Made by a program: the position numbers and the translations under genes. Positions 3,426-64,000 of a DNA stretch of 64,000 bases are shown here, one piece after another. The notes under the pieces are model-generated. The model did not search any database. It was not told the origin of the DNA and saw only the letters and a list, made by a program, of their open reading frames with translations. Source of the stretch: Escherichia coli (GTDB taxonomy: Bacteria > Pseudomonadota > Gammaproteobacteria > Enterobacterales > Enterobacteriaceae); the NCBI RefSeq assembly GCF_016026235.1, contig NZ_CP065613.1. The stretch is one strand, 5' to 3'. The stretch's first letter is position 1, and each line of letters starts with the position of its first letter.

Positions 3426-6838
<3,413 letters not shown>

Positions 6839-9217: not shown

Positions 9218-12200
9218 TACCGATATGCTCCACTTAACCGACCACCATCACGGGCCTGCTGTTGCATAAAGTCCGCTGCCGCTTTTTTCCCAAGGTCATA
9301 AACCACCTTCAGGGCAGCCGGACCTATCTGCCCGTTCGTGCCATCGTTATTGATCTCGATGTTGTACTGCGGGGCAAACATCGCCATACCTGAACCACCA
9401 ATATCCGCCACAACCCCCAGCTTACCGTCAGCACCACGACGCAGTGGCAGAATGGCTTCAGGTCCAGCTTCCCCCATCACACCCGCGCCTTTTGCAAAAG
9501 CAAAAAACGTCGGACGGTTAACCACCGTGCCACTGTAACGACTCAAATCAGCAGACTGATAAATCCCCCCATTGGCATTCAGGGAAAGGCTGCTGAGATC
9601 AAATCCCAGTACACTGCCAATCCCTTTTATCGATTTCATCATGGTTGCCTGCGCCAGGATTTTCGCCATATCTGACAGCACCGAAGAGGTGAAGGATTTG
9701 AAGTTGAGTTTGCCGGTAGTGACAAAAGTTGCCAGGCCATTTCCCATGTTGCTGAAGGCTGATGAGAACACCTGTTCTGCTGTTCCTGCCGTATTGTCTG
9801 CATCCACGGTAAAATCCTGAAATGCACGCAGGACTCCGTTTTTCCAGTTACCCTGCACAACTTCAAGCTGTTGCCAGTAACGGCGATTCTCATTCAGTTG
9901 TCGGTTCAGGCTCTCCGTCAGCGCCTGCTCGGCCTTTCTGTAGTCATCCGTGTTATATGTCCCTTTCTGCTCACTATCCCGCCTCAACTGCTCCAGCTGT
10001 TGCTGGTATTTCTGGCGAAGACTCAGTTGTACCTGATATCGCTGCCGCTGCTGATCACCCATACCCACCGTGGCGATATCCAGGTCATGTTGCTGACGCT
10101 GAGCGCGCTCTTCTTCAGCCAGTTGACTGGTCAGCTGAATTGTTTTTTTCTTCAGATCGTTGAGTGCCGTTTGTTTCTGAAGCTCCTGCTGTTTTACATC
10201 CAGCAGCGTCAGTGCCTGAATCAGCTCATTCTTACGGGCCAGCACACTCTTTTCATCTGCCGTCAGCTTTTTCCCGTCCAGGTCGCTGATGCGCTGCTGC
10301 AGGGCCAGAAGCTGTTTATGCGCTTCAGTCATCCTTTCAGTGGCAATGCCTGCTGACTGTCTTGCAGCAGCAATCTGTCCTTCCACCTGTGCCTGTTGCT
10401 GACTGTACTGCAGCAATAACCGGGTGGCCTCATCATTACGGGTTTCGCGTGTTTTTTTCTTACCGGATGCCAGGGCTTTCTCGTAACGTTCATTTTCACG
10501 TTGTATCGCCGCATCCCTGACAGCCTGGTCGGCGTACTGCATGGCATTAATACGCGCAATTTCACGCTGATGTCGTGCTGCTTCCGTTTCATTCATCCGG
10601 TTCAGTGCAGCATTTTCAGCATTACGTCGTTTCTGTTGCTCCTGATAATTCCGCTCTGCCTGCTCTTTTGCATCCTGCAAATCCTTCTGGCGTTTTTTCT
10701 CCTGAAGATCGTTAAGACGCTGCTGATCGTATTCAACCTGAGAAGATGATGCCGTCCAGGGGAGTCTTTTCGCCCGCGACACTTTCTCCTGTAAAGCGGT
10801 AATCTGTTCATCCAGCGAGTCTTCACGACCAATATTCATGGCCGCATCCCAGAAACGACTCCACAAATCAGACAGATACTTCAGCGTACTGCCAAGCGCA
10901 TTGAGGTTATTATCAATATCCGCAGTACGCCGACCGGTTTCCTCTGCCAGTGCAGACATGGCTATCCGTGCAGCATCACTGGACCGTCCCTGATCCCCAA
11001 GGACACGTATCTGCTCAAGCTGAGTGGCAGTAAGAAAATGCAGCTCATTGTCCAGAGCCTTCGCGGCATTTACAGGATCATCCTTCAGCCGCTTAAACTG
11101 ATTTATGGTATCGCTGACCGACTGGCCAACCGATCGCTCCATCTGTGCGGCAGCTCTCGCCACCATACCGATATCGTTTCCACGAAATGCACCACTCCCC
11201 ACCACCTGCGCCAACGCACCGGCTGCAGCATGTTGCGTGATACCATTCCCGGAAATAGCACGACTGAGCGTCCACAGCTGCCCGGCAGTGACTCCGGCAT
11301 AATGCCCCGTCAGCGACAACTGGCGGTTAAATTCTTCCCCCTCCTTCTGACCGTCATACCAGGCTTTACCCAGACCATAGACGGCCGCGGCAATACCGCC
11401 AATAACCCCGCCAAGCATCATGCCTTTCGGTGACATCAGTGCGCCTGTCCATCCGGCACGGTTAGCCAGCGTTATCCCGGATCCCCTCAGCGCCCCTAAA
11501 TTGCCGCGGGCCAGTTCACCTATCAGAACGCCTATCTCCTGGCGGGCTGCTGCACTTTTCAGACCCAGCGAATGCGTGGCTTTTCCTGCCTGCTCCATTT
11601 TGCGGATATACACTTCTGCAGCACTGCTTACCCCCAGCTGGGCTGCCCTGGCGCGAAGCAACTCAGAAGATGAAAGATTCTGGCGGGTTGCCTGCTCTTT
11701 AAGCTGACGGATAAACGCCACTTTCTGTCGGGTAGCCTCTTCCTCAGCCTGTGTAAGAACACGGGTTTTCGCAGTAACCTCAGAAATCAGCGCCAGATAA
11801 TCCTGCTGACCAATCCCGCCACTGTTTCTGGCCTGTCGGATCTGCTGCTGAATACGCTGTAATTCCTGCAGCCCCGCACTGGCCTGTTTCACACTGTCAA
11901 TCTGACGATAAAACGCAGCAGCCGCTTTATCCTGAGCCTCCGCCAGAGCCATGGCCTGCGCCTGTTCCTCGCGCATTTTCTGGCTCAGCGCCTCCATGCG
12001 CTGGCGGGTTTTCTCCACCTCGCGGGCCATGCGTTCATGAGCCTGTGCGTTCTTCTCCACCGTCTGCGCATGGACGGATGCGGCTGTTGCAGCCGAAGAA
12101 GCCGCCTGCGTTGTCTGCCGGGCGGCCTGAGTCTGACGCTCCATAAAACGCTGCATACGGGCAGAAGACCGTTCTGCATCGCTGGCTGCACCATTCAGAA

Positions 12201-12312
12201 GGTTTTTGATACGGGGAATTTCATTTTTAAACTCTGCCGCATCAATCCCCAAATCAATGACCAGGTTGGCTATCTGGTCCATAACGCACACCTCCGGAAA
12301 TACCTTCCCCAA
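9217..12312 (-). CDS. H: Tail tape measure protein H (start possibly at 12282)
   Basis: About 1030 aa, coiled-coil-rich, Gly-rich C-terminal part ending NNDGTNGQIGPAALKVVYDLGKKAA... similar to lambda gpH. Confidence 0.9.
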   Translation of the reverse strand: MGKVFPEVCVMDQIANLVIDLGIDAAEFKNEIPRIKNLLNGAASDAERSSARMQRFMERQTQAARQTTQAASSAATAASVHAQTVEKNAQAHERMAREVEKTRQRMEALSQKMREEQAQAMALAEAQDKAAAAFYRQIDSVKQASAGLQELQRIQQQIRQARNSGGIGQQDYLALISEVTAKTRVLTQAEEEATRQKVAFIRQLKEQATRQNLSSSELLRARAAQLGVSSAAEVYIRKMEQAGKATHSLGLKSAAARQEIGVLIGELARGNLGALRGSGITLANRAGWTGALMSPKGMMLGGVIGGIAAAVYGLGKAWYDGQKEGEEFNRQLSLTGHYAGVTAGQLWTLSRAISGNGITQHAAAGALAQVVGSGAFRGNDIGMVARAAAQMERSVGQSVSDTINQFKRLKDDPVNAAKALDNELHFLTATQLEQIRVLGDQGRSSDAARIAMSALAEETGRRTADIDNNLNALGSTLKYLSDLWSRFWDAAMNIGREDSLDEQITALQEKVSRAKRLPWTASSSQVEYDQQRLNDLQEKKRQKDLQDAKEQAERNYQEQQKRRNAENAALNRMNETEAARHQREIARINAMQYADQAVRDAAIQRENERYEKALASGKKKTRETRNDEATRLLLQYSQQQAQVEGQIAAARQSAGIATERMTEAHKQLLALQQRISDLDGKKLTADEKSVLARKNELIQALTLLDVKQQELQKQTALNDLKKKTIQLTSQLAEEERAQRQQHDLDIATVGMGDQQRQRYQVQLSLRQKYQQQLEQLRRDSEQKGTYNTDDYRKAEQALTESLNRQLNENRRYWQQLEVVQGNWKNGVLRAFQDFTVDADNTAGTAEQVFSSAFSNMGNGLATFVTTGKLNFKSFTSSVLSDMAKILAQATMMKSIKGIGSVLGFDLSSLSLNANGGIYQSADLSRYSGTVVNRPTFFAFAKGAGVMGEAGPEAILPLRRGADGKLGVVADIGGSGMAMFAPQYNIEINNDGTNGQIGPAALKVVYDLGKKAAADFMQQQARDGGRLSGAYR

Positions 12313-12978
12313 GATGCATCAGTTCTTCGTCCGTTCGCTCCGGTATCCCGTTCTCTTCCGGTAAAAGGCTGAAATCAGCCACCGCAGCATCACTGCTGCC
12401 GGACACCATTCTCACGATCAATGCCTTCAGCGAGGCAAACTGCGCATCCATCCACACATCACTGAAGCTCTGCATCCGGAAATAATCGCCCCACTCACCA
12501 AGCTCAGTGGCCGACATTTCCGACAGCATCCGCCGCCAGTCTGCCCGCCTGAACTCCCGGGCAAGCCGCATGACAAACTGCATTTCCCGCGTCAGGACTT
12601 TTCCGGCGTCAGCACCTCATGCTCCAAATCCCCGGCATTCTCAATGGCTCCCATACCGCTCAGCGACAGAACCATCTCCGCCCCCGCTCCCAGGGCATCA
12701 TACGACCATGTTGTAATAACGGATGCGCAAAGCGTCTCAACATCCTGAGACTGTTCCGCATTCCACAGTGAGCGGGAAACCAGCCAGGCATTGATATCCA
12801 TCCCCATCCGTAGAAAAGCAATCTGTCGTTCAGCCTCCGGCAGTTCTCCCTCTTCGGCATCAAACTTTGCCGTTCGCTGCTGAACAAACGCCAGATATTC
12901 AATTCTCTGCAGCCCGGACAGCTCACTGAGCACCACGGACTGCTTTTCATAATTAAACGTGCCCTGTTTCAGAAACAT
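12254..12978 (-). CDS. Tail assembly chaperone G-T, expected to be made by -1 frameshifting near the G stop
   Basis: The -1 frame is open across the G stop (…AGKVLTREMQFVMRLAREF…) and continues as ORF 12254..12583. Confidence 0.6.
12592..12978 (-). CDS. G: Tail assembly chaperone G
   Basis: Starts MFLKQGTFNYEK like lambda gpG (MFLK...); lies immediately upstream of H. Confidence 0.8.
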   Translation of the reverse strand: MFLKQGTFNYEKQSVVLSELSGLQRIEYLAFVQQRTAKFDAEEGELPEAERQIAFLRMGMDINAWLVSRSLWNAEQSQDVETLCASVITTWSYDALGAGAEMVLSLSGMGAIENAGDLEHEVLTPEKS

Positions 12979-13037
12979 CATGTTCTCCGGATGCAAAAAG
13001 CCCCGGATAACCGGGGCAAATGATGAGTATCGTCCTG

Positions 13038-13669
13038 TTAACCTGCGGCGCTGACAGCCACCGTAGCCACTGCCACAAAATCGCCGTCAGAAGTCATGCC
13101 CACAATGCTGACACTGCCCTGCTTCACGCCTTTCACCGTGGCAGTCTGTGGATCTGTCGAATGCACACTGATCGCTTTGTCACTGGCTCCGTCAGGTTTT
13201 ACTGTAAAGGTCAGCGTGGTGGTTGCTCCCGCTTTGACACTGGCAGATGCCGGTGCCATCGTCAGCCCGGTAACGCCCACGATTTCAGTGCCTTCCTCTG
13301 CCAGATACGGAAAACATCAACAGTACCGTTGGGATATTTGATACGAAAAGCGCAGACTTCACCGGAGTCGAACAACTGAACCAGTTTTTTCTGCCCGCTG
13401 TCCCCCGGACGCCAGGCCAGCGTCGCCGAAGTATCACCGACTGATTTCTGCCCCTGGGTTGTCGTTTTCCAGTCTGCATCTTCATCATCGAGATAAGTGT
13501 CATCTTCTGCATCAGCGGTCATTTCGCCAGGTTGCAGATCCTTCACCATCGCAAGACGCAGCCAGTCAGTGTCCGATAAAGGGTTCGCAAACGCATCGCC
13601 CTTGCCGGTATACATCCAGAACGTCGTTCCCGCACCTTTCGTTTTTGCCAGTGGATTTGGTGTGGTCAT
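13038..13669 (-). CDS. V: Major tail protein V, split into two overlapping frames (13262..13669 and 13038..13280)
   Basis: N-terminal part [20 protein letters not shown]...NGTVDVFR resembles lambda gpV; the Ig-like C-terminal domain ([24 protein letters not shown]...) is in another frame. Confidence 0.8.
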
Positions 13670-13679
13670 TACCACCTCC

Positions 13680-14093
13680 TTAATTCGTGTACGTGATCTG
13701 GTACGTGATTTCCGCCATCGCCCAGGTGGCCATCTCATTATCACGTTGATAGTTAAAACCGAGTGGGATCAGGGTGTCGATGAGTCCGGAAAGTGCTGGT
13801 ACATCATTCAGGGCCGGGAAAATGGTGCTCTCCATCCACATATCCAGCTCTGAATCCGGTGCCTGTGCCCGGATGAAGACAGCAATATGCAGAACAGCCT
13901 GCCAGTCATCTTCATCCGTCATTTTTCCGGTGTACTGAGCATCACTCAGCCACACCGCCACGGCAGGCAGTTCCTGCGCATCAACAAATGCCGGAAGCCC
14001 GTCAAAAAACGTGGCGCTGTCTCCACACTGTTCCCGAAGGCGTGCCAGTACGACCTGGCGGATTTGTGTATGTCGGTTCATCGGGTCAGCCAT
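13680..14093 (-). CDS. U: Tail tube terminator protein U
   Basis: ATFFDG...AVAV...PDSELD.WMES motifs similar to lambda gpU. Confidence 0.8.
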
Positions 14094-14656
14094 AACCTCA
14101 GTTGTTGTTTCAGTGCATACCCCAGCTGTTTCGGCATTTCCGCAGCAATGATGCGGTCGCGGGCATCTTCAAATGTCTGTGTCAGCGGTCCGGACAGCGG
14201 GATTTTCACCACATCAATGGGGTAACGATTTTTGCCATCAATACGCCGCATCACATGCCAGCGACCATTCGCCAGTTGCTGAATAAACGCATCCCGGAAA
14301 AGATATTTACCCACCTTCAGCACACTGCCACGGTACTGCAGTTTTCCACCACGCCGGGCCAGTCTGACCCGGGCTGTCCCCAGCTTAATGGCAGGCAGAT
14401 TGCCCCGGTTAACGCGGATCCTGGCCGTCATTTTTCCTGACGGACTGGCTTTAAACACCCGGACACGCTGACGTACCAGTTTCAGGGGGATCCCTTTCAC
14501 CTGGTTATCTCCCGCAACGGTATTCCCGGCAACCTGCCGGGTGGCAACCGAGACCGCTTTCTGTGCCACACGGTTTATCGCCCATGCGCTGGCCTGTGGC
14601 ACCATACGGGTATCAAGGCTGTTCAGATTGCGGATGGCATTCTCAAGCCCCTTCAT
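14078..14656 (-). CDS. Z: Minor tail / tail completion protein Z
   Basis: 192 aa; RWHVMRRIDGKNRYPIDVVKIPL and C-terminal KQLGYALKQQLR resemble lambda gpZ. Confidence 0.8.
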   Translation of the reverse strand: MKGLENAIRNLNSLDTRMVPQASAWAINRVAQKAVSVATRQVAGNTVAGDNQVKGIPLKLVRQRVRVFKASPSGKMTARIRVNRGNLPAIKLGTARVRLARRGGKLQYRGSVLKVGKYLFRDAFIQQLANGRWHVMRRIDGKNRYPIDVVKIPLSGPLTQTFEDARDRIIAAEMPKQLGYALKQQLRLWLTR

Positions 14657-14667
14657 CCCACACCTCT

Positions 14668-14943
14668 TTACTCAATAAAGATCATTGGCTTACCGTTAAA
14701 GCGTTCATGCCGTGTGACCGTCCATTGTTGTCCGTCATAAACAACGCGATCACCGCGCCGTGGGCGGTATCCCGAAGAAAACACCACCAGAGAGACCGCA
14801 GGTCCGGACAGAGCATTCAGCTCTGCCAGTGTTTCTCCCGGGATCACAGTCATATCGACATCATTAATCGAGGCTGTCTTTCCCATCTTTCTGACCGTGA
14901 TAGCATCCATACGCGCTGCCAGCCGGGAAAAGGGATCAGACAT
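14668..14943 (-). CDS. Head-tail joining protein (FII-like)
   Basis: 91 aa, positioned between the head module and Z as lambda FII is; call is by position and size. Confidence 0.55.
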   Translation of the reverse strand: MSDPFSRLAARMDAITVRKMGKTASINDVDMTVIPGETLAELNALSGPAVSLVVFSSGYRPRRGDRVVYDGQQWTVTRHERFNGKPMIFIE

Positions 14944-15259
14944 TGAGTTTTACCGGCACTTCTTCTGCACTGGTTCCGGCATCTGCCCAGACAACCCCGA
15001 CCAGCGGATCAGAGCCGCTGTTAGTCAGCTGAATTTTTCCGGACTTCAGATAAACCTTCTTACCCGTTTTCATGTCATCCGTTTTCAGCTTAGGCAGCAT
15101 AAACACACCTTCGGTCATGCCGTCGCCTGTTTCACCCTGTGGAATATCGGTCAGCGCCACCGCAAAAACATCGCCCACCTGCACCAGATCTCCGCTGCTG
15201 ATGGCTGCACTGGCAACAATCGCCACCGTTTTTCCTTCTTCTACAAAATTCTTTGCCAT
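14936..15259 (-). CDS. Small phage head-associated protein (DUF2190-like), probable start MAKNFVEEGK
   Basis: About 107 aa immediately downstream of the capsid gene; tentative family assignment. Confidence 0.45.
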   Translation of the reverse strand: MAKNFVEEGKTVAIVASAAISSGDLVQVGDVFAVALTDIPQGETGDGMTEGVFMLPKLKTDDMKTGKKVYLKSGKIQLTNSGSDPLVGVVWADAGTSAEEVPVKLNV

Positions 15260-15345
15260 AACTGTCTCCGCACAGCCCCGTTCAGGGGCTGATTTCAGGT
15301 ACAAAAAAAGCCCTTACGGGCCATCAGAGATGTTGTCTGCGACGT

Positions 15346-17057
15346 TTACGCCGTACATTTCACCAGACCGCGGTGATCAACTGGCGCGACACCGGCGTCA
15401 ATACGCACTTTCGTTGTCACGCCATCCACACTGAAGCCCTCCATCTGATCAATATATGGCGTATCCACACCGTTGAGATAAGCCACTTCAATCGTATCGG
15501 AGCCTTTTGACGCAGCCAAGTAGAAGGTGGTCTGGCTGTTATCATCAAGACGAGGCTCTGCAATAACGGTCGCAAAATCTTTCACCGGGTTAATAATACC
15601 GGCGTTAATGTCAGCCCCCTTGACACTTGAGGAGCGAATGACCTGGTTAGCAACAGACTCCATCGCCGTCGGTACCAGTACGAACGCAGGACGAATATTC
15701 AGATGACGCTCCCCCTCTTTCTGAACGCGCATCAACTGGCGGGCTTTATCCAGCGATGCCACGTCCATTGCAGCGCTCTCCAGTACGTTTGCATGTTTCG
15801 CTTTATCGAACAGACTTACATTATCTGTGGAGATTTTCGGGTTAGACGTCAGAATGGCATAAACCAGATCGGCAATAGTGGATTTCGCCGCACGGCCCAG
15901 TTTCATCGGGACATCGGTCAGCATATTCAGATCATCATTGATAATGGCCTGACGGGTGATACTGAACAGCTCGCCATAGGTCGCCAGTGCAATAGTGGCC
16001 TGTTTATCTCCGGTGGTGACGTATTTATATTCCGCCCCTTCACGCACCTGACGCAGAGCACTGAAGCCCCCCATACCCACACGATGGGCAATTTTAAAAT
16101 CAGACAACTGACCTTTCCGCGTCCACTGTTCATAGGTTTCAGGGGCATCTTCCCAGCCCTGCAGAATGGCTTTGTTCGCAACATCCAGCAGAATATTACC
16201 GAAGTCAGACGTACTGTGTGTGAACGCCGCACCGACCATCTGCATCGGGTTATAACCGGAAACCCCAATACCCCGTTCAGTCAGTGACATACGGGCATAT
16301 TCACGCAGGGTCATCCCGTTGTAGACATTATCACGTTCGGTTTTTTCAAATCCGGCACGCGCCATCAGCGCCTGGCGGATCCCGTCCCCCACAAAATTAC
16401 CGTTACCGGCATAAATATGAGCCGGGGTATTTTTATTGGATGGCGTGGACTCGCGCCCCATCTCGTTCAACAGCTTTTCACGGGCCTGCTCCAGCGAACA
16501 TTCAGGATCGGCAAGACACTGAGCCTGCAGCGTCTGATAACGCCCGCCAAACATGGCAAACAGATCATTAATACCGTTTACACGCGCTTTTTGCTCTGCC
16601 AGTACCTGCGCACGGATGCTGTTTTCATCCACCACGGGTGCTGCTGCCTGCACTGGCGTCCGGGAGGCTTCAGATTCATTATCCTGTACGCGTGGAGCAC
16701 TGTTGCGTGGCGGAGTAATCATGTTTCGAATGGATTCCGGCATCTTTTTAAATTCCTCTGTACGTTTTGACTGAATACATGCCATTGCCTTAACGGCTGG
16801 CGTTACCTGATCAGCAAATCCATGTGCCAGACATTCGGCACCGGACATCCAGGTCTCATCCGCCAGCATGGCAGCAATTTCATCGGTGGTTTTCCCGGTT
16901 TTCTGTGCATAAGCGGGTAACAGAACCGCCTCAACTTTATCGAGCAGGTCGGCATAGGTGCGCATGTCCTCCGCATCACCGCCCGTAAAGCCAAATGGTT
17001 TATGAATCATCATGAAGGTGTTTTCCGGCATAATGACCGGGTTTCCTACCATCGCAA
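15346..17057 (-). pseudogene. Prohead protease / major capsid protein fusion (HK97-fold), 5' end cut by IS600-like element
   Basis: N-terminal part looks like the C-terminal half of a ClpP-like prohead protease, followed by a capsid-like domain; the frame runs directly into the IS end at 17058. Confidence 0.75.
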
Positions 17058-17100
17058 TGAGGTGTACTGGCAATAGCGGACACTACCATTTGTTCTTTTT

Positions 17101-17919
17101 TTAAGCAGCCATCTGATGATATTTTTCCCTGAAGGCTGCCGGGGAGATATTCCCCAGACGAGAGTGACGACGCTGACGATTGTAGAAAATCTCAATGTAT
17201 TCCCGTATTACTGAGATGGCTTCATCCCGGTTATTAAAACGATAGTGGCTCAGGCTCTCATTTTTCAGCGTTCCCCAGAAGCTTTCCATCGGAGCGTTGT
17301 CGTAACAGTTACCTTTACGCGACATTGATGTTTTCAGACCAAACTGCTCCTGTATGACCCGGTAATCGTATGCGCAGTACTGTGAACCTCGATCAGAGTG
17401 GTGGATTAGCCCGGCAGGTGGGCGCTGGCTCCTGAGCGCCATAAACAGGGCTTTACCTGTCAGCTCTTTTGTCATGCGCTCTCCCATGGCGTAGCCGACA
17501 ATTTCGCACGTATAAACATCTTTGATGCCAGCGAGGTACAACCATCCCTCCTGTGTGGCAACATACGTCAGGTCCGCCACCCAGACCTGATTTGGTGCTG
17601 TAGGAGCGAACGTCTGGTTCAGCAGATTTGGCGCAACTGGCAGATTGTGGTTCGGGTTCGTAGTCGCTCTGAACTTGCGTTTCTGCTTACAGCGTAGCCT
17701 TAGCTCCTTACGAAGACGTGCCAGTCGGTCACGACCAACGATGATGCCATTCTCTGCCAGCTCCGTCTGGAGCCGCCGGGTTCCATATGTTTCGCGAGTG
17801 CGGATATGTGCCACCTTAATCTCCAGTTTTAGCCGCTCATCACTTTGTTTTCTGTCTGAGGGTTCATGCTGTACCCAGTTGTAATAACCGCTCCTGGATA
17901 CACCAAATACCTGACACAT
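17101..17919 (-). CDS. IS3-family transposase OrfB (DDE integrase-like catalytic domain)
   Basis: 272 aa with HSDRGSQY and later E; the -1 frame joins orfA to orfB through an A7 run (about 17995-18005). Confidence 0.9.
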   Translation of the reverse strand: MCQVFGVSRSGYYNWVQHEPSDRKQSDERLKLEIKVAHIRTRETYGTRRLQTELAENGIIVGRDRLARLRKELRLRCKQKRKFRATTNPNHNLPVAPNLLNQTFAPTAPNQVWVADLTYVATQEGWLYLAGIKDVYTCEIVGYAMGERMTKELTGKALFMALRSQRPPAGLIHHSDRGSQYCAYDYRVIQEQFGLKTSMSRKGNCYDNAPMESFWGTLKNESLSHYRFNNRDEAISVIREYIEIFYNRQRRHSRLGNISPAAFREKYHQMAA

Positions 17920-17954
17920 CGCTTCAATGGGAAATTGTTGTCGCCATTGTTCGA

Positions 17955-18257
17955 TTAACGCGTATTTTTCAGCGACTCCTGTGCAAAATACGCTGTTGCT
18001 TTTTTTAATATATCTCGCTCAAGGCGAGCTTCATTTAACGCCTTACGCAGTTGCAGAATTTCAGATTCCAGTTCAGCCACCGTGCGGGAGCCAGGAGTAC
18101 CGAGCCCTTTTCTGGCGGCGGTAACCCATTGTCCTAAAGTGCCTTCAGGAAGGGATAATCGGGAAGCGCCTTCACTGATCGAAAGTTGATTTTCAAGAAC
18201 CGTTCTGACAGCTTCGGCTTTGAACTCTTTAGAGTAACGTTGGGTTTTTCTGCTCAT
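17955..18257 (-). CDS. IS3-family transposase OrfA (helix-turn-helix)
   Basis: 100 aa, MSRKTQRYSKEFKAEAVRTV..., typical IS3-family OrfA. Confidence 0.9.
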   Translation of the reverse strand: MSRKTQRYSKEFKAEAVRTVLENQLSISEGASRLSLPEGTLGQWVTAARKGLGTPGSRTVAELESEILQLRKALNEARLERDILKKATAYFAQESLKNTR

Positions 18258-18321
18258 TATTAGCTCCTTCTGATGCCATTCTATTTCAGGAAGGAGTGTC
18301 CGTTAAACTCAGGCTACCTCA

Positions 18322-18405
18322 GTTTTCCCTGACTCTTACGCCTTTATAAACAAACCAGATACGTAATTTCCCTCCATGGCTTTCCACGCCTGTCGGATAT
18401 TTCAT
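18322..18405 (-). pseudogene. Phage integrase N-terminal remnant (about 27 codons), truncated by IS600-like element
   Basis: Minus-strand translation MKYPTGVESHGGKLRIWFVYKGVRVREN is the characteristic N-terminus of lambdoid tyrosine integrases, directly downstream of xis. Confidence 0.6.
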
Positions 18406-18439
18406 TTCAATTTCTCTCATTAGTTAGTGTGGCTTTTAG

Positions 18440-18691
18440 TCAAGTAAGATGACGTCTTGGTCTTGCTGATGCCTGGCGCTCAATCCAGCGATCAATTTCT
18501 TCCAGGTTGTAAAAGCATGGACTGTTATCCCATGGCATACCGTCATGAGCGACATGCTTATATTCCCTTCCTTCCATAAACGATTTTTCCCGGGCCTTTT
18601 TTAACGTACCTTTTTTTATTCCTTTCAGCGCAATTAACTGCTCTTCGGATACCCATTTGCCGGGAGAGACAATCATGATTACTTCGCTCAT
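18440..18691 (-). CDS. Putative excisionase-like protein
   Basis: 83 aa, immediately upstream of the int remnant on the same strand; assignment mainly by position. Confidence 0.5.
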   Translation of the reverse strand: MSEVIMIVSPGKWVSEEQLIALKGIKKGTLKKAREKSFMEGREYKHVAHDGMPWDNSPCFYNLEEIDRWIERQASARPRRHLT

Positions 18692-18775
18692 CGATTTCTT
18701 TATCTCTTACATCAGACGAGCGCCGGTTGCAGAATACCAGTCACAACCGGCGACAGTTGAACATTAAGAATCAGC

Positions 18776-18904
18776 CTGACTCGGGATCAGTTTTTGCCAG
18801 ATAACTGAAACGTATTTTGCCTGGTAACGGGCGTCATCAAGTGCATTATGGCGCTCACCTTCGAATGGAATAGCCGTTCTGGCATCGAAGTCTATGGCTT
18901 TCCC
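18776..18904 (-). pseudogene. C-terminal fragment of a DnaQ-like (DEDDh) 3'-5' exonuclease, 5' part removed by IS10-like insertion
   Basis: Translation ...FEGERHNALDDARYQAKYVSVIWQKL contains the H-x-A-L-D-D-A exo III motif; the frame runs into the IS end at 18905. Confidence 0.45.
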
Positions 18905-20198
18905 CTGAGGAATCCCCAGAAAACAAGACAGGCATAGTGAGATGTGATCTAATTGATTGTGCTAACAATTTCAAGGAGATCACCACTATGCCTGCACGTT
19001 CATTATGCCAAAATTTCCTTAACAACATACTGGCCCCTTTGCATCTTTACCGTCAAAAATCACTGATTGACGCAACTAATGCTGTAATAAATGGCGCTTC
19101 CCTCACACTTACCAGTATCGGGCGTCATTTAACCGGTACGGCATCAGTTAAAAACAAAATAAAGCGGGTGGATCGACTGTTGGGGAATCGACATTTGCAA
19201 AATGAGGTTTCCACCATTTTTCAGCGAATTACCCAAAAGATTACGCGGGGAATGTCTCGTGTTGTGATACTCATTGACTGGAGTGCTTATCATGCCTCTC
19301 GTTTTCAGCTTTTGCGGGCAAGCCTGGCATGTGACGGGCGTTCTTTACCGTTGATGAGTTGTGTCGTTCCATCATCACAGACAGCGAATGCAGATGTACA
19401 TGAGCGTTTTCTGGAATCGCTTGCTGAGTGCTTTTCCCCCGGGACTGATGTCATTGTTATTACAGATGCCGGTTTTCAGGGGCGATGGTTCCAACAGCTC
19501 CGCTCCCGTGGCTGGACCTATATTTGCCGGGTACTGGGCAATCATTATTACAATGTTGGTAATGGCTGGGAAAAGGTGTCGGACTCAGGCACAAAAGCAT
19601 CAACGACAGCAATTTATTTAGGTGAAGGCCTGCTGGGTCGAGATAAAAATGCACAACATGAAGGGCATTTTTATCTTTATAAAAGTAAGCCTAAAGGTCG
19701 TAGATTTAAACGCTCGAAGGAAAGAGCAACCAGACCATCGGTGACGGCTAAAGCTCGTACTGCCGGGAAATCACCATGGTTTATTTTCACAAACAGTACT
19801 GAGTTCTCGCCAAAACAGGTAATGAAATTATACAGCCGTAGAATGCAAATTGAGCAAAATTTCAGGGATGAAAAAAATCCTCGCTGGGGATTTGGACTAC
19901 GGTTTGGTGCCAGTCATTCATCCGGGCGGGTCACGGTATTGAGTCTGATCGCAACATTAGCCAGTATCATTATGTGGTTAAGCGGTTTCAGCCTGGAAAA
20001 CAAAGGGATACATCATAAATATCAGGCAAATACAGTGAAGCACAGGCGAGTCATCTCGTTATTAAAACTGGCGGAGAATGTGATTCGACATTCTCCACTC
20101 ATACTAAACACACTGTCACTTGACGCAGGGCTGAAAGTTCTACAGCAACGGTATACCAATATGATAATGGTTTACTAAATTTTCTGGGGATCCCTCAG
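18905..20198 (+). mobile_element. IS4-family insertion sequence, IS10-like, copy 1 (1294 bp)
   Basis: Terminal inverted repeats CTGAGGAATCCCCAGAAAA (left) and CTGAGGGATCCCCAGAAAA (right, reverse complement), resembling IS10 ends; single transposase ORF; no 9-bp direct repeat in the flanks. Confidence 0.85.
18988..20178 (+). CDS. IS4-family (IS10-like) DDE transposase
   Basis: ATG at 18988 preceded by AAGGAG; motifs KRVDRLLGNRHL, ILIDWS, VITDAGF and YSRRMQIEQNFRD align with the IS10 transposase DDE residues. Confidence 0.85.
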   Translation: MPARSLCQNFLNNILAPLHLYRQKSLIDATNAVINGASLTLTSIGRHLTGTASVKNKIKRVDRLLGNRHLQNEVSTIFQRITQKITRGMSRVVILIDWSAYHASRFQLLRASLACDGRSLPLMSCVVPSSQTANADVHERFLESLAECFSPGTDVIVITDAGFQGRWFQQLRSRGWTYICRVLGNHYYNVGNGWEKVSDSGTKASTTAIYLGEGLLGRDKNAQHEGHFYLYKSKPKGRRFKRSKERATRPSVTAKARTAGKSPWFIFTNSTEFSPKQVMKLYSRRMQIEQNFRDEKNPRWGFGLRFGASHSSGRVTVLSLIATLASIIMWLSGFSLENKGIHHKYQANTVKHRRVISLLKLAENVIRHSPLILNTLSLDAGLKVLQQRYTNMIMVY

Positions 20199-20824
20199 CA
20201 GTCAGCCCCGCTCTCTTTCGCTTTTTCCAGTCGTTCATCAATGCGATCGGCAACAATCACATTTTTAACGTTATAGACGCCTTTTAATACCTGAACGATC
20301 GTCAGGCCGATTGGACCGGCACCGTAAACCAGAACGGTATCATTTTCAGTCGGTTGACCATGGCCGGTTACGTTAGCCGCAATGGTAAAAGGTTCGATCA
20401 TCACCGCATATTGATCGGCCACTGCTTCAGGAATTTTCCACGCATTTTTTGCCGGAACCACGGCATATTCACTGAAACCACCGTCAGCGTGCACACCTAA
20501 TACAGCCAGTGTCGTACAAACGTTCGGTTTACCTATAGAGCACGGATAGCAATGCCCACAGCTGACCACCGGATCGACAGCAACACGTTCACCGACTCTG
20601 GCGCTTTCCACACCTTCACCCACCGCATCAATGACGCCAAAGAATTCATGTCCAATGACGCGCGGATATTTCGCAAAAGGATTATGCCCACGATAAATAT
20701 GGCTATCTGAACCACAAATTCCGGCAAGTTTCACTTTTACTCGTACTTCACCCGCTGACGGGGTGGGTATTTCACGTTCGACAATCGCCAGTTGATTCGG
20801 TTTTTCAATTAATATGCTTTTCAT
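20199..20824 (-). pseudogene. rspB: Starvation-sensing zinc-type dehydrogenase RspB, 3'-truncated by IS10-like element
   Basis: N-terminus MKSILIEKPNQLAIVEREIPTPSAGEVRVKV... matches RspB; reading frame ends in a TGA supplied by the IS terminus after about 208 of roughly 339 residues. Confidence 0.85.
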
Positions 20825-20835
20825 TATCTTACTCC

Positions 20836-22050
20836 TTACCAGTTCCACAGCGTGCCATCTTCCAGACGTGCGACTGGTAGATAAGCAGGTTCATAGGGAT
20901 ATTTCGCCGCCAGCTTTTCATCGAATTCGATGCCAAGACCCGGTTTGTCTCCCGGATGCATATAGCCGTTATCGAAAGTCCAGTTGTGCGGGAAGACTTC
21001 GAGCATTTGTTCGGAATAACCCATGTATTCCTGGACACCGAAATTGGGGACCCACAGATCAAAGTGCAGCGCTGCAGCCATGCAGACTGGTGACAAATCG
21101 GAAGGACCGTGTGAGCCAGTACGTACCTGATACAGCGAAGCAAAATCGGCAATCCGGCGCATACCGGTAATTCCGCCTGCATGGGTCAGCGTGGTGCGGA
21201 TATAATCGATGAGTTGCTCTTCAATCAGTTGTTTGCAGTCCCAGATGCTGTTGAAGACTTCACCCACTGCGATGGGTGTGACGGTATGTTGGCGAATGAG
21301 ACGGAAGCATTCCTGGTTTTCCGCAGGCGTCGGGTCTTCCATCCAGAACATGCGATAATCTTCAATGCTTTTACCAAAGCGCGCCGCTTCAATAGGCGTT
21401 AAGCGATGGTGCATGTCATGCAGCAAATGTTCATTAAAACCAAACTTGTTACGTACCGCGTCAAACAATTTCGGCATGAAATCGAGGTATTTCTCCGTCG
21501 ACCACAGCTGCTCTTCCGGCCACTGTCCTTTGGTTGCGGGTTCATAAGCCAGACCTTTACCTTTCGACATGCCGTAGGTGGTTTTCATACCAGGGATTCC
21601 GCACTGCACGCGGATGGCTTTGAATCCCAGCTCCTGATGACGGGCATAATCATCCAGAGCTTCATCAATACTGTGACCGGTGGTATGGCAATAAACCATC
21701 ACCCCTTCACGAGACGCGCCGCCGAGTAACTGGTAAAGCGGCATGTTGGCAGCTTTGGCTTTAATATCCCACAGCGCCATATCAACCGCTGAAATGGCCG
21801 ACATCGTAACCGGACCGCGACGCCAGTAAGCACCTTTATAGAAAAACTGCCAGATATCTTCGATACGGTGCGCATCGCGACCAATAAGCTGCGGACAAAG
21901 GTGATCCTGCAAATAAGAGGCCACGGAAAGCTCACGTCCATTGAGGGTGGCATCCCCAAGGCCCGTAATACCGTCCTCAGTGGTGATTTTTAATGTGACG
22001 AAATTACGCCCCGGACAGGTAACAAAAACTTCAGCCTTTACGATCTTCAT
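20836..22050 (-). CDS. rspA: Starvation-sensing protein RspA (mannonate dehydratase / enolase superfamily)
   Basis: [40 protein letters not shown]...; 404 aa from the internal Met. Confidence 0.9.
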
Positions 22051-22255
22051 GTTCGATTCCTTGCATCGCTTGTCGTGATGCATGAAATCTACGCAACTGA
22101 ACTACTACCATACAAGTATGAAGATCGAAAAAAGCCGGAGTGATCACAAAAAAAGGCGTATATTTGCGCTGTGAATGGTTGACAAAAGATGAAATAGAAT
22201 ACCTTTTGTCAGCTGACGCTTCCTCGTATCTTATTGATAAAATGGATTTATGTTC

Positions 22256-22582
22256 CTACGTGCGCCCCCAGCCCGCAACAATGATCAACATGCCGCAAAG
22301 CGCAATCAACGCACCCGTCCAGTCATAAAGTGTCAGTTTCACGCCATCCACAACGCGCAGCCACATCAACGCCGTGCAGACATAAACGCCACCATAAGCC
22401 GCGTAAACACGCCCACTCGCCGCAGGATGCAACGTTAACAACCAGACAAACAGCGCCAGTGAAATCCCCGCCGGAAGCAACAGCCAGATACTGGCGTTTC
22501 GTTTTAACCACAACCAGGGCAGAAAGCATCCAATAATTTCACACAGCGCAGTAGCAAAAAATAGTAACGTTGTTTTAATCAT
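22256..22582 (-). CDS. ynfA: UPF0060 inner membrane protein YnfA
   Basis: 108 aa, four predicted transmembrane helices; conserved synteny. Confidence 0.85.
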
Positions 22583-22716
22583 CTTTGTCACTTATTGACA
22601 TCATGTATAGTTATAGGGCGACATAATATCATCAATATAAACACCCTCCTGGTACGTTTTGCGTCCGCAGTGGATGGTGTAGAATCACCTTTAATCATTC
22701 ACACAGGGAATGAATT

Positions 22717-23058
22717 ATGAAAATCACTCTCAGCAAACGAATCGGCCTGCTCGCTTTTCTGCTGCCTTGCGCACTGGCATTGAGCACAACTGTTCATGCC
22801 GAAACTAACAAACTGGTGATTGAGTCTGGCGACAGTGCACAAAGCCGCCAGCACGCCGCTATGGAAAAAGAGCAATGGAATGACACGCGCAATCTGCGCC
22901 AGAAAGTGAATAAACGCACTGAAAAAGAGTGGGATAAAGCCGACGCCGCTTTTGATAACCGCGATAAATGTGAGCAAAGCGCCAACATCAATGCCTACTG
23001 GGAGCCAAATACTTTGCGCTGCCTGGACCGTCGAACTGGCCGCGTTATTACCCCCTAA
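22717..23058 (+). CDS. ynfB: UPF0482 secreted protein YnfB
   Basis: 113 aa with signal peptide. Confidence 0.85.
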
Positions 23059-23092
23059 CCTGTTATTGATTTAAGGAATGTAAGGACACGTT

Positions 23093-23653
23093 ATGCCAAG
23101 CGCCCACAGTGTTAAGCTACGCCCGCTGGAGCGTGAAGATTTACGCTATGTACATCAACTCGACAATAACGCCAGTGTGATGCGTTACTGGTTTGAGGAA
23201 CCCTACGAAGCCTTTGTTGAACTCTCTGATCTGTATGATAAGCATATTCACGATCAGAGCGAACGACGCTTTGTGGTGGAATGTGACGGCGAAAAAGCCG
23301 GTCTGGTGGAGTTGGTGGAAATTAACCATGTACATCGCCGCGCAGAATTTCAGATAATTATCTCCCCGGAGTATCAGGGGAAAGGTCTGGCAACCCGTGC
23401 CGCCAAATTAGCAATGGACTATGGCTTCACCGTTCTCAATCTCTATAAGCTGTATCTGATCGTTGATAAAGAGAATGAAAAAGCGATTCACATTTACCGC
23501 AAGCTTGGCTTTACGGTTGAAGGTGAATTGATGCATGAGTTCTTTATTAATGGTCAATATCGTAATGCCATTCGCATGTGTATATTCCAGCATCAGTATC
23601 TGGCAGAGCACAAAACACCGGGTCAGACTCTCCTGAAGCCGACCGCACAATAG
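23093..23653 (+). CDS. speG: Spermidine N1-acetyltransferase (GNAT)
   Basis: 186 aa; GNAT fold motifs; matches SpeG. Confidence 0.9.
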
Positions 23654-23655
23654 CA

Positions 23656-24366
23656 TTAATAATAATCGATCGTATTTTTGATGGTGTAAACCCGTTCGAC
23701 GGCGGGTTTTACTCCTTCATCAACAATGATCAGCTGACAGTCCACCGGATTGGCGTGACTGTCATATTCACAGCTCTGTTTTACATTACCAACTCGTTGA
23801 TTATTCAGTAAAGTAACCGCTGTGTAATCTAATTTTTTGATCGGGTCCGTTGATGGCGTGGCGCTGACAGATAATGTTTTGTCGTTACTTTTCGTGGTTT
23901 TACCCAGTGGATAACCCTGATCATCATAGCGATATTCCATCTGCATTTGTTTGCTGCTGGCTTTAATCACGAAGCCATTATCATCGGTTTCCCAACTCAC
24001 CCCGGCAGAAGGTAATTCTGCTAGCTGGCATTTTCCCTGTAAACGTACTCTCTTCTCCAGCGTCTCGGCATCACGGTAATAATTGGCGTCCAGTACCAGA
24101 GCGACCACGGTATTATTTTCCAGATCCAGTAATTCGAGTGAATCAAAACAGCCTTCTTCCGACAAAGTCCCCGAAACACGTTTCGTCACTTCACCTTGCT
24201 CATCCATTAATGTCTGAGTGAAATCTTTTACCGGACCACGCAGCGGATCAAAATCGAATTCATTAGAGAAACTGGCCATCTCAGGAGTAAATGAAAGTGT
24301 TACCTCTGTGCGGTCACATCCTGTGAGTAATATCGCGAGTAAGCATGGCAGTAATTTGTATTTCAC
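23656..24366 (-). CDS. ynfC: Lipoprotein YnfC (UPF0257); probable GTG start
   Basis: Lipobox LLTGC; 236 aa from the GTG. Confidence 0.8.
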   Translation of the reverse strand: MKYKLLPCLLAILLTGCDRTEVTLSFTPEMASFSNEFDFDPLRGPVKDFTQTLMDEQGEVTKRVSGTLSEEGCFDSLELLDLENNTVVALVLDANYYRDAETLEKRVRLQGKCQLAELPSAGVSWETDDNGFVIKASSKQMQMEYRYDDQGYPLGKTTKSNDKTLSVSATPSTDPIKKLDYTAVTLLNNQRVGNVKQSCEYDSHANPVDCQLIIVDEGVKPAVERVYTIKNTIDYY

Positions 24367-59616: not shown

Positions 59617-63100
<3,484 letters not shown>

Positions 63101-64000
63101 CTGAGGGATCCCCAGAAAATTTAGTAAACCATTATCATATTGGTATACCGTTGCTGTAGAACTTTCAGCCCTGCGTCAAGTGACAGTGTGTTTAGTATGA
63201 GTGGAGAATGTCGAATCACATTCTCCGCCAGTTTTAATAACGAGATGACTCGCCTGTGCTTCACTGTATTTGCCTGATATTTATGATGTATCCCTTTGTT
63301 TTCCAGGCTGAAACCGCTTAACCACATAATGATACTGGCTAATGTTGCGATCAGACTCAATACCGTGACCCGCCCGGATGAATGACTGGCACCAAACCGT
63401 AGTCCAAATCCCCAGCGAGGATTTTTTTCATCCCTGAAATTTTGCTCAATTTGCATTCTACGGCTGTATAATTTCATTACCTGTTTTGGCGAGAACTCAG
63501 TACTGTTTGTGAAAATAAACCATGGTGATTTCCCGGCAGTACGAGCTTTAGCCGTCACCGATGGTCTGGTTGCTCTTTCCTTCGAGCGTTTAAATCTACG
63601 ACCTTTAGGCTTACTTTTATAAAGATAAAAATGCCCTTCATGTTGTGCATTTTTATCTCGACCCAGCAGGCCTTCACCTAAATAAATTGCTGTCGTTGAT
63701 GCTTTTGTGCCTGAGTCCGACACCTTTTCCCAGCCATTACCAACATTGTAATAATGATTGCCCAGTACCCGGCAAATATAGGTCCAGCCACGGGAGCGGA
63801 GCTGTTGGAACCATCGCCCCTGAAAACCGGCATCTGTAATAACAATGACATCAGTCCCGGGGGAAAAGCACTCAGCAAGCGATTCCAGAAAACGCTCATG
63901 TACATCTGCATTCGCTGTCTGTGATGATGGAACGACACAACTCATCAACGGTAAAGAACGCCCGTCACATGCCAGGCTTGCCCGCAAAAGCTGAAAACGA
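63101..64000 (-). mobile_element. IS4-family IS10-like element, copy 2 (partial, runs off the window), inverted relative to copy 1
   Basis: Terminus CTGAGGGATCCCCAGAAAATTTAGTAAACC and about 880 bp identical to the reverse complement of copy 1. Confidence 0.85.
63121..64000 (-). CDS. IS10-like DDE transposase, partial (N-terminus beyond window end)
   Basis: The 288 aa within the window are identical to the C-terminal 288 aa of the copy 1 transposase. Confidence 0.85.
   Translation of the reverse strand, partial: RFQLLRASLACDGRSLPLMSCVVPSSQTANADVHERFLESLAECFSPGTDVIVITDAGFQGRWFQQLRSRGWTYICRVLGNHYYNVGNGWEKVSDSGTKASTTAIYLGEGLLGRDKNAQHEGHFYLYKSKPKGRRFKRSKERATRPSVTAKARTAGKSPWFIFTNSTEFSPKQVMKLYSRRMQIEQNFRDEKNPRWGFGLRFGASHSSGRVTVLSLIATLASIIMWLSGFSLENKGIHHKYQANTVKHRRVISLLKLAENVIRHSPLILNTLSLDAGLKVLQQRYTNMIMVY

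Follow-up and report, generated by a model that had tools for sequence, protein, structure and literature searches.

The only IS600 copy in the window, i.e., in the stretch of 64,000 nucleotides of Escherichia coli contig NZ_CP065613.1 analyzed here, is very probably the scar left in a Qin-locus lambdoid prophage by a 27-kb deletion, in an E. coli lineage rich in IS elements. The junctions, the halves of target duplications, the orientations, and the intermediate genomes on which this reading is built can be read directly from genome assemblies. The first-pass annotation had proposed an IS-mediated inversion or deletion fusion at this element. Both kinds of event seem to have occurred, but the inversion is attributable to a pair of ISEc60 elements, whereas the event at IS600 would be the 27-kb deletion. 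Features of the region are collected in Table 1.

Table 1. Features at the IS600 and ISEc60 junctions of the prophage remnant (window coordinates).
Feature	Position	Strand	Description
ClpP-like prohead protease/major capsid fusion, 3' part	15346..17057	-	about codon 105/106 to 675
caa (TTG on coding strand)	17055..17057		half of ancestral capsid::IS600 3-bp target duplication
IS600 (IS3 family, IS3 group)	17058..18321	-	1264 bp, apparently intact
IS600 IRR	17058-17084		starts TGAGGTGTACTGG... at 17058
IS600 orfB	17101-17919	-	272 aa, rve DDE domain
IS600 orfA	17955-18257	-	100 aa, HTH
IS600 A7G slippery run	17999-18006		candidate -1 frameshift site
IS600 IRL	18295-18321		finishes ...GGCTACCTCA at 18321
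gtt	18322..18324		half of int::IS600 3-bp target duplication
int'	18322..18405	-	first 28 codons (84 nt) of 426-aa tyrosine integrase, MKYPTGVESHGGKLRIWFVYKGVRVREN
int'-xis-exo' island	18322..18904		583 bp, inverted vs both rspAB and capsid-tail module
xis	18440..18691	-	intact, 83 aa; E. coli matches annotated 'excisionase family protein'; Pfam DUF1233
exo'	18764..18904	-	last 142 nt of 823-aa prophage exonuclease gene
ISEc60 (IS4 family, IS10-like)	18905..20198	+	1294 bp
ISEc60 transposase	18988-20178		396 aa, DDE_Tnp_1
rspB'	20199..20824	-	5' part of Zn-dependent oxidoreductase gene, cut by ISEc60

The prophage, that of E. coli GCA_900449985.1, occupies the Qin (rspB/ydfJ) locus. The native order there, as seen in seven genomes including E. 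coli 1EC213, is rspA+ rspB+, then int- xis- exo- ... terminase+ portal+ capsid+ tail+, and finally ydfJ' and ydfI; in intact prophages at rspB/ydfJ, int-xis-exo thus run leftward and terminase-portal-capsid-tail rightward. In the window, one side still has native rspAB, with rspA and then ynf genes following rspB' in native order, and the other has native tail fibre-ydfJ'-ydfI-ydfZ-rspR-ydfG-dcp. Native orientation is retained by both chromosomal flanks and by the capsid-tail module, and only the small int'-xis-exo' island is inverted: it aligns plus/plus to E. coli 1EC213, against plus/minus for the rspAB side as well as for the capsid side. As a consequence of this layout, int', xis, and exo' all lie on the minus strand together with the head and tail genes. 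The first-pass annotation had regarded this arrangement as foreign to an intact prophage, and the opposite strands of the two modules in intact relatives at the locus bear this out.

Since the native rspAB and ydfJ' flanks are kept, the event was local to one prophage. Large IS-mediated rearrangements are frequent in E. coli and Shigella strains with many IS elements, and a missing target duplication, taken alone, would also allow a fusion of two different prophages in which IS600 copies far apart on the chromosome had caused a large inversion or translocation. It is extremely improbable that such a fusion took place, as E. coli 1EC213 and GCA_014155105.1 both have int and the capsid gene within a single prophage, and both chromosomal flanks are native to that prophage. 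Judged by the layout of its intact relatives, the region is a single lambdoid prophage at the Qin locus of which only fragments are left; dicB, ydfA, ydfD, rem, hokD, essD, tfaQ, and ydfJ' are present in an intact relative. Qin of E. coli K-12, a cryptic lambdoid prophage likewise situated at rspB/ydfJ, is defective after losing some of its genome and resembles the window in locus, defectiveness, and partial loss. In contrast to Qin of K-12, the survivors in the window are the tail genes, the 3' part of the capsid gene, and the tiny int'-xis-exo' island, and the route of decay can be traced to IS600 and ISEc60.

The first-pass annotation had described a 1264-bp IS3-family element that interrupts a capsid gene on one side and, 27 codons after its start, an integrase gene on the other, and its coordinates and flanks hold. 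The capsid gene is indeed interrupted but is more precisely a fusion of prohead protease and major capsid protein (Pfam CLP_protease and Phage_capsid_4), and the IS600 cut falls in the protease part. The intact fusion gene has 675 codons, of which the window keeps the 3' 1712 nt while the 5' 313 nt are missing. The remnant is 99.8% identical to the intact 675-aa genes of 1999 complete E. coli genomes, and its alignment to L002 ends at the IS600 end. On the other side, int' was identified by alignment to the intact int genes of L001 and L006 (GCA_901482675.2); its ATG is located at 18405-18403, 27 codons after the ATG remain, and the next codon is a TGA provided by the IS600 end.

With regard to the element itself, all features of the IS3 family and of IS600 that were looked for are present, and on its sequence it is an ordinary, apparently intact IS600. 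Copies to which PGAP gives the name 'IS3-like element IS600 family transposase', from E. coli O121 among other strains, are 99.6-99.7% identical to the window element at the nucleotide level over 1264 bp; near-identical copies are marked 'programmed frameshift' by PGAP. The terminal inverted repeats consist of imperfect 27-nt arms, 70% complementary and of the TG...CA type (TGAGGT...ACCTCA), and the products contain the Pfam domains HTH_Tnp_1, HTH_21, rve, and rve_3. Length, ends, orfA/orfB, and the A7G run are the same as in named IS600, the element itself showing no difference. What differs is the 3-bp duplication of named IS600, which is absent at the window copy but present at both parental insertions described below. 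Re-inspection of the exact IS600 ends (flanks caa versus gtt) yields no 3-bp direct repeat, as had been claimed in the first-pass annotation.

Each flank of the window IS600 corresponds to half of a different parental duplication, TTG from the capsid gene and GTT from int. At the capsid site of the window, L022 and L023 read ...CATTG-IS600-TTGCGATGG, against one TTG in the native sequence, while L054 reads ...CCCCAGGTT-IS600-GTTTTCCC and native int has a single GTT. That the window IS600 lacks a target duplication therefore seems due solely to its origin as a recombinant between two copies. Among 5,426 complete RefSeq E. coli genomes, the junctions capsid'-IS600, IS600-int', and rspB'-ISEc60 were found in none. 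Partial matches in O121, O26, and other strains were rejected since IS600 is inserted at different sites; in L003, IS600 lies between xis and exo, and in L004 at another position of the capsid gene. The sister contigs discussed below were reached through IS-junction products, whereas portal and exo queries gave unrelated genomes only.

The ISEc60 pair responsible for the inversion lies just outside the region covered by the first-pass annotation. The one member kept in the window, at 18905-20198, has every feature looked for in the IS4 family and in ISEc60 and can be assigned to ISEc60 on these grounds: it is 99.9-100% identical to copies named 'IS4-like element ISEc60' by PGAP, and its ends, CTGAGGAATCCCC and CTGAGGGATCCCC, are IS10-like (CTGAGG.ATCCCC). 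The target duplications of the ISEc60 insertions are 10 bp long, CAGTCAGCCC in rspB and TGGCTTTCCC in exo. In the window, the flanks of ISEc60 differ from each other (TGGCTTTCCC versus CAGTCAGCCC) and form no target duplication, which marks a second breakpoint.

Two sister genomes clarify how both breakpoints may have arisen. GCA_901482675.2 has the same rspB-ISEc60 junction as the window, there as a simple insertion with the duplication CAGTCAGCCC, and its int-xis-exo region is native and intact. In GCA_014155105.1, two inverted ISEc60 copies bound a flipped rspB3'-attL-int-xis-exo3' segment, and two IS600 elements, int::IS600 (GTT) and capsid::IS600 (TTG), are present as simple insertions 27,035 bp apart; both IS600 transposase genes point the same way in contig JAALAC010000002.1, i.e., the copies are direct repeats. 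In the orientation of L054, the order in GCA_014155105.1 is rspA, rspB', ISEc60, exo3', xis, int5'-IS600-int3', rspB3', and ISEc60 (inverted), and continues with exo5', early genes, lysis genes, terminase, portal, capsid5'-IS600-capsid3', and tail. L054, L046, and L022 come from one contig of this genome and overlap or nearly adjoin one another, 214 bp between L046 and L022 being left out. The exo' remnant of the window terminates in TGGCTTTCCC (18895-18904), half of the exo::ISEc60 target duplication; the other half adjoins exo5' in L046 and L054, and CAGTCAGCCC is likewise split between both ISEc60 copies. Window positions 17058-24032 are 100% identical to L054 (6975 bp), and window 18321-3345 is 99.98% identical to L022. 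GCA_014155105.1 is considered a sister genome displaying a natural intermediate state, which is not proof of ancestry. The first-pass annotation had expected partner junctions with 3-bp duplications at other IS600 copies, and these are found in this sister genome as int3'-GTT-IS600-GTT-int5' and capsid5'-TTG-IS600-TTG-capsid3'. They are not expected elsewhere in the genome of the window, since the deletion would have consumed them.

These data suggest a history of four steps. ISEc60 would first have inserted into rspB, adjoining attL, followed by a second ISEc60, oppositely oriented, inside the exo 3' end. By recombining with each other, these two elements would have flipped the 2.37-kb segment rspB3'-attL-int-xis-exo3', leaving int parallel to the head genes; a one-step duplicative inversion would lead to an identical product. 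Before or after this flip, IS600 may have entered both int (after codon 28, at GTT) and the protease-capsid gene (at about nt 313, at TTG), and after the flip the two IS600 copies would be direct repeats 27,035 bp apart. In the lineage of the window, homologous recombination between them would finally have left one recombinant IS600, with its IRL side from the int copy and its IRR side from the capsid copy, at the expense of int3', attL, rspB3', the second ISEc60, exo5', the immunity, replication, Q, and lysis genes, terminase, portal, and capsid5'. That the window has a single ISEc60 is explained by the loss of the other copy in this later IS600 deletion. The IS600 x IS600 recombinant predicted from GCA_014155105.1 matches the window exactly, and we attribute the crossovers, by inference, to host homologous recombination. 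The int and capsid copies of GCA_014155105.1 are distinguished by two positions alone, 78 and 232 counted from IRL, and the window IS600 is identical to the int copy (C78/C232; A78/T232 in the capsid copy). These alleles are compatible with one crossover beyond position 232, only two SNPs being informative; taken without the int copy, the two SNPs are too weak a proof of a chimera.

The same final map would result from the reverse order of events, in which a 24-kb core is first inverted between oppositely oriented IS600 copies in int and capsid and an ISEc60-adjacent deletion then removes rspB3'-exo5', and from the window alone the two orders are indistinguishable. An IS600 inversion followed by an ISEc60 deletion would explain the window as well as the final model does, and it is rejected on the layout of GCA_014155105.1. 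In this genome, the ISEc60-bounded 2.4-kb inversion is in place while both IS600 are still simple, direct insertions, and the halves of the exo duplication are split exactly as predicted for an exo::ISEc60 insertion followed by inversion, rendering the reverse order highly unlikely.

Neither a second copy nor homologous recombination would be needed if a single IS600 had deleted its adjacent DNA, driven by its transposase or by IEE. IEE promotes deletion of DNA flanking IS elements (PMC9397093) and, in the account given there, acts on IS600 and its IS3-family relatives without requiring a second copy (Kusumoto et al. 2011, via PMC9397093). However, both IS600 junctions of the window match, to the base, two simple insertions in the sister genome. 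An adjacent deletion from the capsid copy would retain A78/T232 whereas the window has C78/C232, and one starting from the int copy would need a chance endpoint exactly at the capsid::IS600 IRR junction. Junctions and alleles therefore fit copy-to-copy recombination better than IEE-mediated excision or deletion, and an adjacent deletion appears very unlikely.

Direct IS600 copies might also have been collapsed by the assembler, with the 27 kb still in the strain; the junction lies inside a 1.26-kb repeat, and only one long assembly of the window state was found. Had this happened, the unique DNA of the interval, some 25.8 kb that correspond to 4328540-4354310 of JAALAC010000002.1, should have ended up on a contig of its own. 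Three products of the interval, a 108-aa capsid5' fragment, a 799-aa exo5' fragment, and a 417-aa protein, occur in sister assemblies, but none of the three is recorded for GCA_900449985.1, whose annotation includes small ORFs (an exact-protein index was used, in which a miss is not proof of absence). Furthermore, the window and the GenBank record both carry the junctions although one homopolymer base differs between them in gene J; they are thus not the same sequence copy, which does not imply independent assemblies. An assembly artefact is hence rated as highly improbable, and a true deletion by recombination between the two IS600 copies is preferred.

Recombination between direct IS copies that leaves one recombinant copy at the deletion junction is a textbook outcome (Lee et al. 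2016, PMC5009759). The window shares with those deletions the one recombinant IS, flanks derived from two insertion sites, and the loss of the DNA between. It differs from them in that natural isolates are concerned, that the precursor state is kept in a sister genome, and that the deletion would be nested in an earlier inversion by a different IS. Likewise, as in inversions between inverted IS copies, the ISEc60 pair bounds a 2.37-kb flip with two 10-bp duplications exchanged, although the window retains only one ISEc60 of the two. The mechanism is textbook IS-driven prophage decay.

Going by its gene content, the outcome is a dead prophage remnant that lacks attL and a functional integrase as well as a repressor, a terminase, a portal, and a complete capsid gene. 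There is a very slight chance that the intact xis, situated between two IS elements that could supply outward transcription, might still be expressed and act in trans on related lambdoid prophages in the same cell; if true, such action, e.g., modulated excision of related prophages, could explain the survival of the 583-bp island. The importance of these findings beyond annotation is little. An annotation of the region should show a dead prophage remnant, with capsid', int', exo', and rspB' as pseudogenes, and not two odd gene fusions. It provides a clean example of two IS families dismantling one prophage, by inversion and then by deletion, and since the intermediate junctions are all kept in sister genomes, they could be used as lineage markers in this clade of IS-rich E. 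coli.

Over 10195-24000, the window is 100% identical to contig UGFA01000002.1 of the source assembly GCA_900449985.1, whose proteins carry the species label Escherichia coli. Beyond the truncated rspB, the genes rspA, ynfA and the ynf genes are collinear with E. coli 1EC213, and left of the window the tail genes lead into ydfJ'-ydfI-ydfZ-rspR-ydfG-dcp. Exactly this site harbors an intact lambdoid prophage in 1EC213, in the order rspA+ rspB+ / int- xis- exo- ... Q, lysis, terminase+ portal+ protease/capsid+ tail+ / ydfJ', and the same rspB-int-xis-exo layout exists in six more genomes. In K-12 this locus houses the Qin cryptic prophage, with which the gene names in the intact relative agree. 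When compared with 1EC213, the rspAB and capsid-tail sides of the window still have their native orientation to each other, and only the 583-bp int'-xis-exo' island (18322-18904), consisting of pieces from the early left arm of the prophage, is inverted. The rearrangement is therefore local to one prophage, and a fusion of two different prophages is excluded by these native flanks.

Features at the two breakpoints of the prophage remnant
Feature	Coordinates	Strand	Position
capsid3', last 1712 nt of the 675-codon ClpP-like prohead protease/major capsid protein fusion gene, broken ~313 nt in	15346-17057	minus	left of IS600
IS600, IS3 family, complete, 1264 bp	17058-18321	minus	
IS600 terminal inverted repeats, 27 nt (TGAGGT...)	17058-17084 and 18295-18321		
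IS600 A7G slippery run	17999-18006		
int', first 28 codons of a 426-aa tyrosine integrase	18322-18405		right of IS600
xis, intact	18440-18691		right of IS600
exo', final 142 nt	18764-18904		right of IS600
ISEc60, IS4 family, IS10-like, 1294 bp	18905-20198		right of island; cuts into rspB at one end and exo at the other

This rearrangement has two IS-bounded breakpoints. Judged by its sequence, the element at the first is IS600: it encodes OrfA (100 aa) and OrfB (272 aa) with HTH_Tnp_1 and rve domains, is 99.6-99.7% identical to copies labelled "IS3-like element IS600 family" by PGAP, and possesses every IS600 feature looked for. It is the only IS600 copy within the 64-kb window, and its flanks, caa and gtt, lack a 3-bp duplication; the first-pass annotation, which had described an IS600-like element joining the capsid gene to int' without target duplication, was correct in every detail. 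The second breakpoint, beyond the region delimited in that annotation, is ISEc60, which likewise displays all features examined for it and whose flanks differ (TGGCTTTCCC versus CAGTCAGCCC), again without target duplication. At 63098-64000, cut short by the window's right edge, lies another copy of ISEc60 in the opposite orientation; its roughly 900 bp match the first at 99.9-100% identity, and between them the pair could allow another inversion, of 43 kb.

Relatives were retrieved by looking up proteins that exist solely through an IS junction. In GCA_901482675.2, the same rspB'/ISEc60 junction belongs to a simple insertion with duplication of CAGTCAGCCC. Beyond this ISEc60 come rspB3', attL and int-xis-exo, all three genes intact and natively oriented; an IS1 is situated between exo and the DUF1482 gene of this prophage (16822-17519 of piece L006). 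In GCA_014155105.1 (piece L022) and GCA_031665325.1, IS600 resides at the identical capsid position and in the same orientation as in the window, as a simple insertion (capsid5'...CATTG / IS600 / TTGCGATGG...capsid3') with TTG duplicated, and the flanking DNA is 99.98 and 99.56% identical to the window, respectively. Further IS damage in L022 consists of about 760 bp inserted between J and lom (18940-19698); both the tail-fibre end and the chromosomal flank (an ABC-3 family gene) differ. Pieces L054 and L046 cover the same contig just upstream of L022, save 214 bp between L046 and L022, and read rspA, rspB', ISEc60, exo3', xis, int5' / IS600 / int3', rspB3', ISEc60 (inverted), exo5' (799-aa product), dicB ... 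cI, cro ... Q, lysis, terminase, portal. Here, IS600 in int is a simple insertion with GTT duplicated. The 10 bases TGGCTTTCCC open exo5' right after the ISEc60 end, and the same bases close exo3' right before ISEc60 in the window; they are the halves of one exo::ISEc60 target duplication. The rspB duplication is also divided between the two ISEc60 copies, which are identical and inverted to each other, and the IS600 copies, separated by 27,035 bp, form direct repeats. A 22.8-kb contig of GCA_001907535.1 spans exactly from ISEc60/exo5' to capsid5'/IS600, and its ends at these junctions place the precursor state in at least two genomes. Among other E. coli with the same lambdoid modules, IS600 lies between xis and exo in O121:H19 (L003, 6331-7594) and, in strain 2015C-3107, in the protease/capsid gene at a different position (L004, 6002-7265); such recurrence may stem from an insertion preference, or just from a high copy number and targets that are neutral.

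A four-step history very probably accounts for this arrangement. ISEc60 would have entered rspB and a second copy exo, and the 2.37-kb attL-int-xis end would have flipped between the inverted copies, by homologous recombination or duplicative inversion, both giving the same product. Both int and the capsid gene would have received IS600, and 27 kb would have been lost by homologous recombination between the IS600 copies, made direct repeats by the flip. Junctions, duplications, orientations and intermediates of this history are present in the genomes; host recombination would have been the agent. The inversion or deletion fusion by IS proposed earlier is supported by junctions, duplications and sister genomes. 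That int' came onto the head-gene strand through an IS-mediated event holds, although this was the work of the adjacent ISEc60 pair, and what IS600 mediated was the deletion. The opposite order, an IS600 inversion followed by an ISEc60-adjacent deletion, is contradicted by the natural intermediate GCA_014155105.1. The anticipated partner junctions with capsid5' and int3' occur there as simple insertions but should no longer exist in the window's genome.

If the direct IS600 copies of GCA_014155105.1 are joined at equivalent points and what lies between is removed, the window map results exactly. The match of window 17058-24032 to L054 begins at the IRR end of the int copy (100% identity, 6975 bp, no gaps), and that of 18321 down to 3345 to L022 begins at the IRL end of the capsid copy. 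The parental copies differ only at positions 78 and 232 from IRL, and the window has the int-copy allele at both, as expected if its IRL side derives from int::IS600 with the crossover beyond position 232. When direct IS copies recombine, a single recombinant copy at the deletion junction is likewise the textbook result (PMC5009759). An adjacent deletion from one IS600, driven by transposase or by IEE, which stimulates both the excision of IS600 and other members of the IS3 family and the loss of DNA next to an IS (PMC9397093), fits poorly, as both window junctions match earlier insertions to the base and the window's IS600 has the int-copy alleles. Assembly collapse of the two IS600 copies is unlikely, because the capsid5' fragment, the exo5' fragment and a 417-aa protein, all encoded in the 27-kb interval, are not on record for the source assembly, though they are in sister assemblies; its annotation does include small ORFs.

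Lacking functional int, attL, repressor, terminase, portal and a whole capsid gene, the remnant is unable to excise or make particles. Further genes are broken. The major tail protein gene (13038-13744), with a single 247-aa product in intact relatives, is split into ORFs of 135 and 80 aa, as in several sister assemblies (L014, L016 and L026), which adds to the decay of this prophage. Tail-tip gene J (1136 aa) is also broken in the window's version, into ORFs of 948 and 171 aa, by one C fewer at 4028-4033 (CCCC versus CCCCC in the GenBank record of GCA_900449985.1); the difference could come from a genuine mutation or from a homopolymer error in either assembly version. IS-mediated inversion and deletion are well documented in E. 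coli, above all in IS-rich lineages, and the process seen here is of this ordinary kind. The case is of value for annotating the pseudogenes correctly and as a pathway of prophage decay documented in full.
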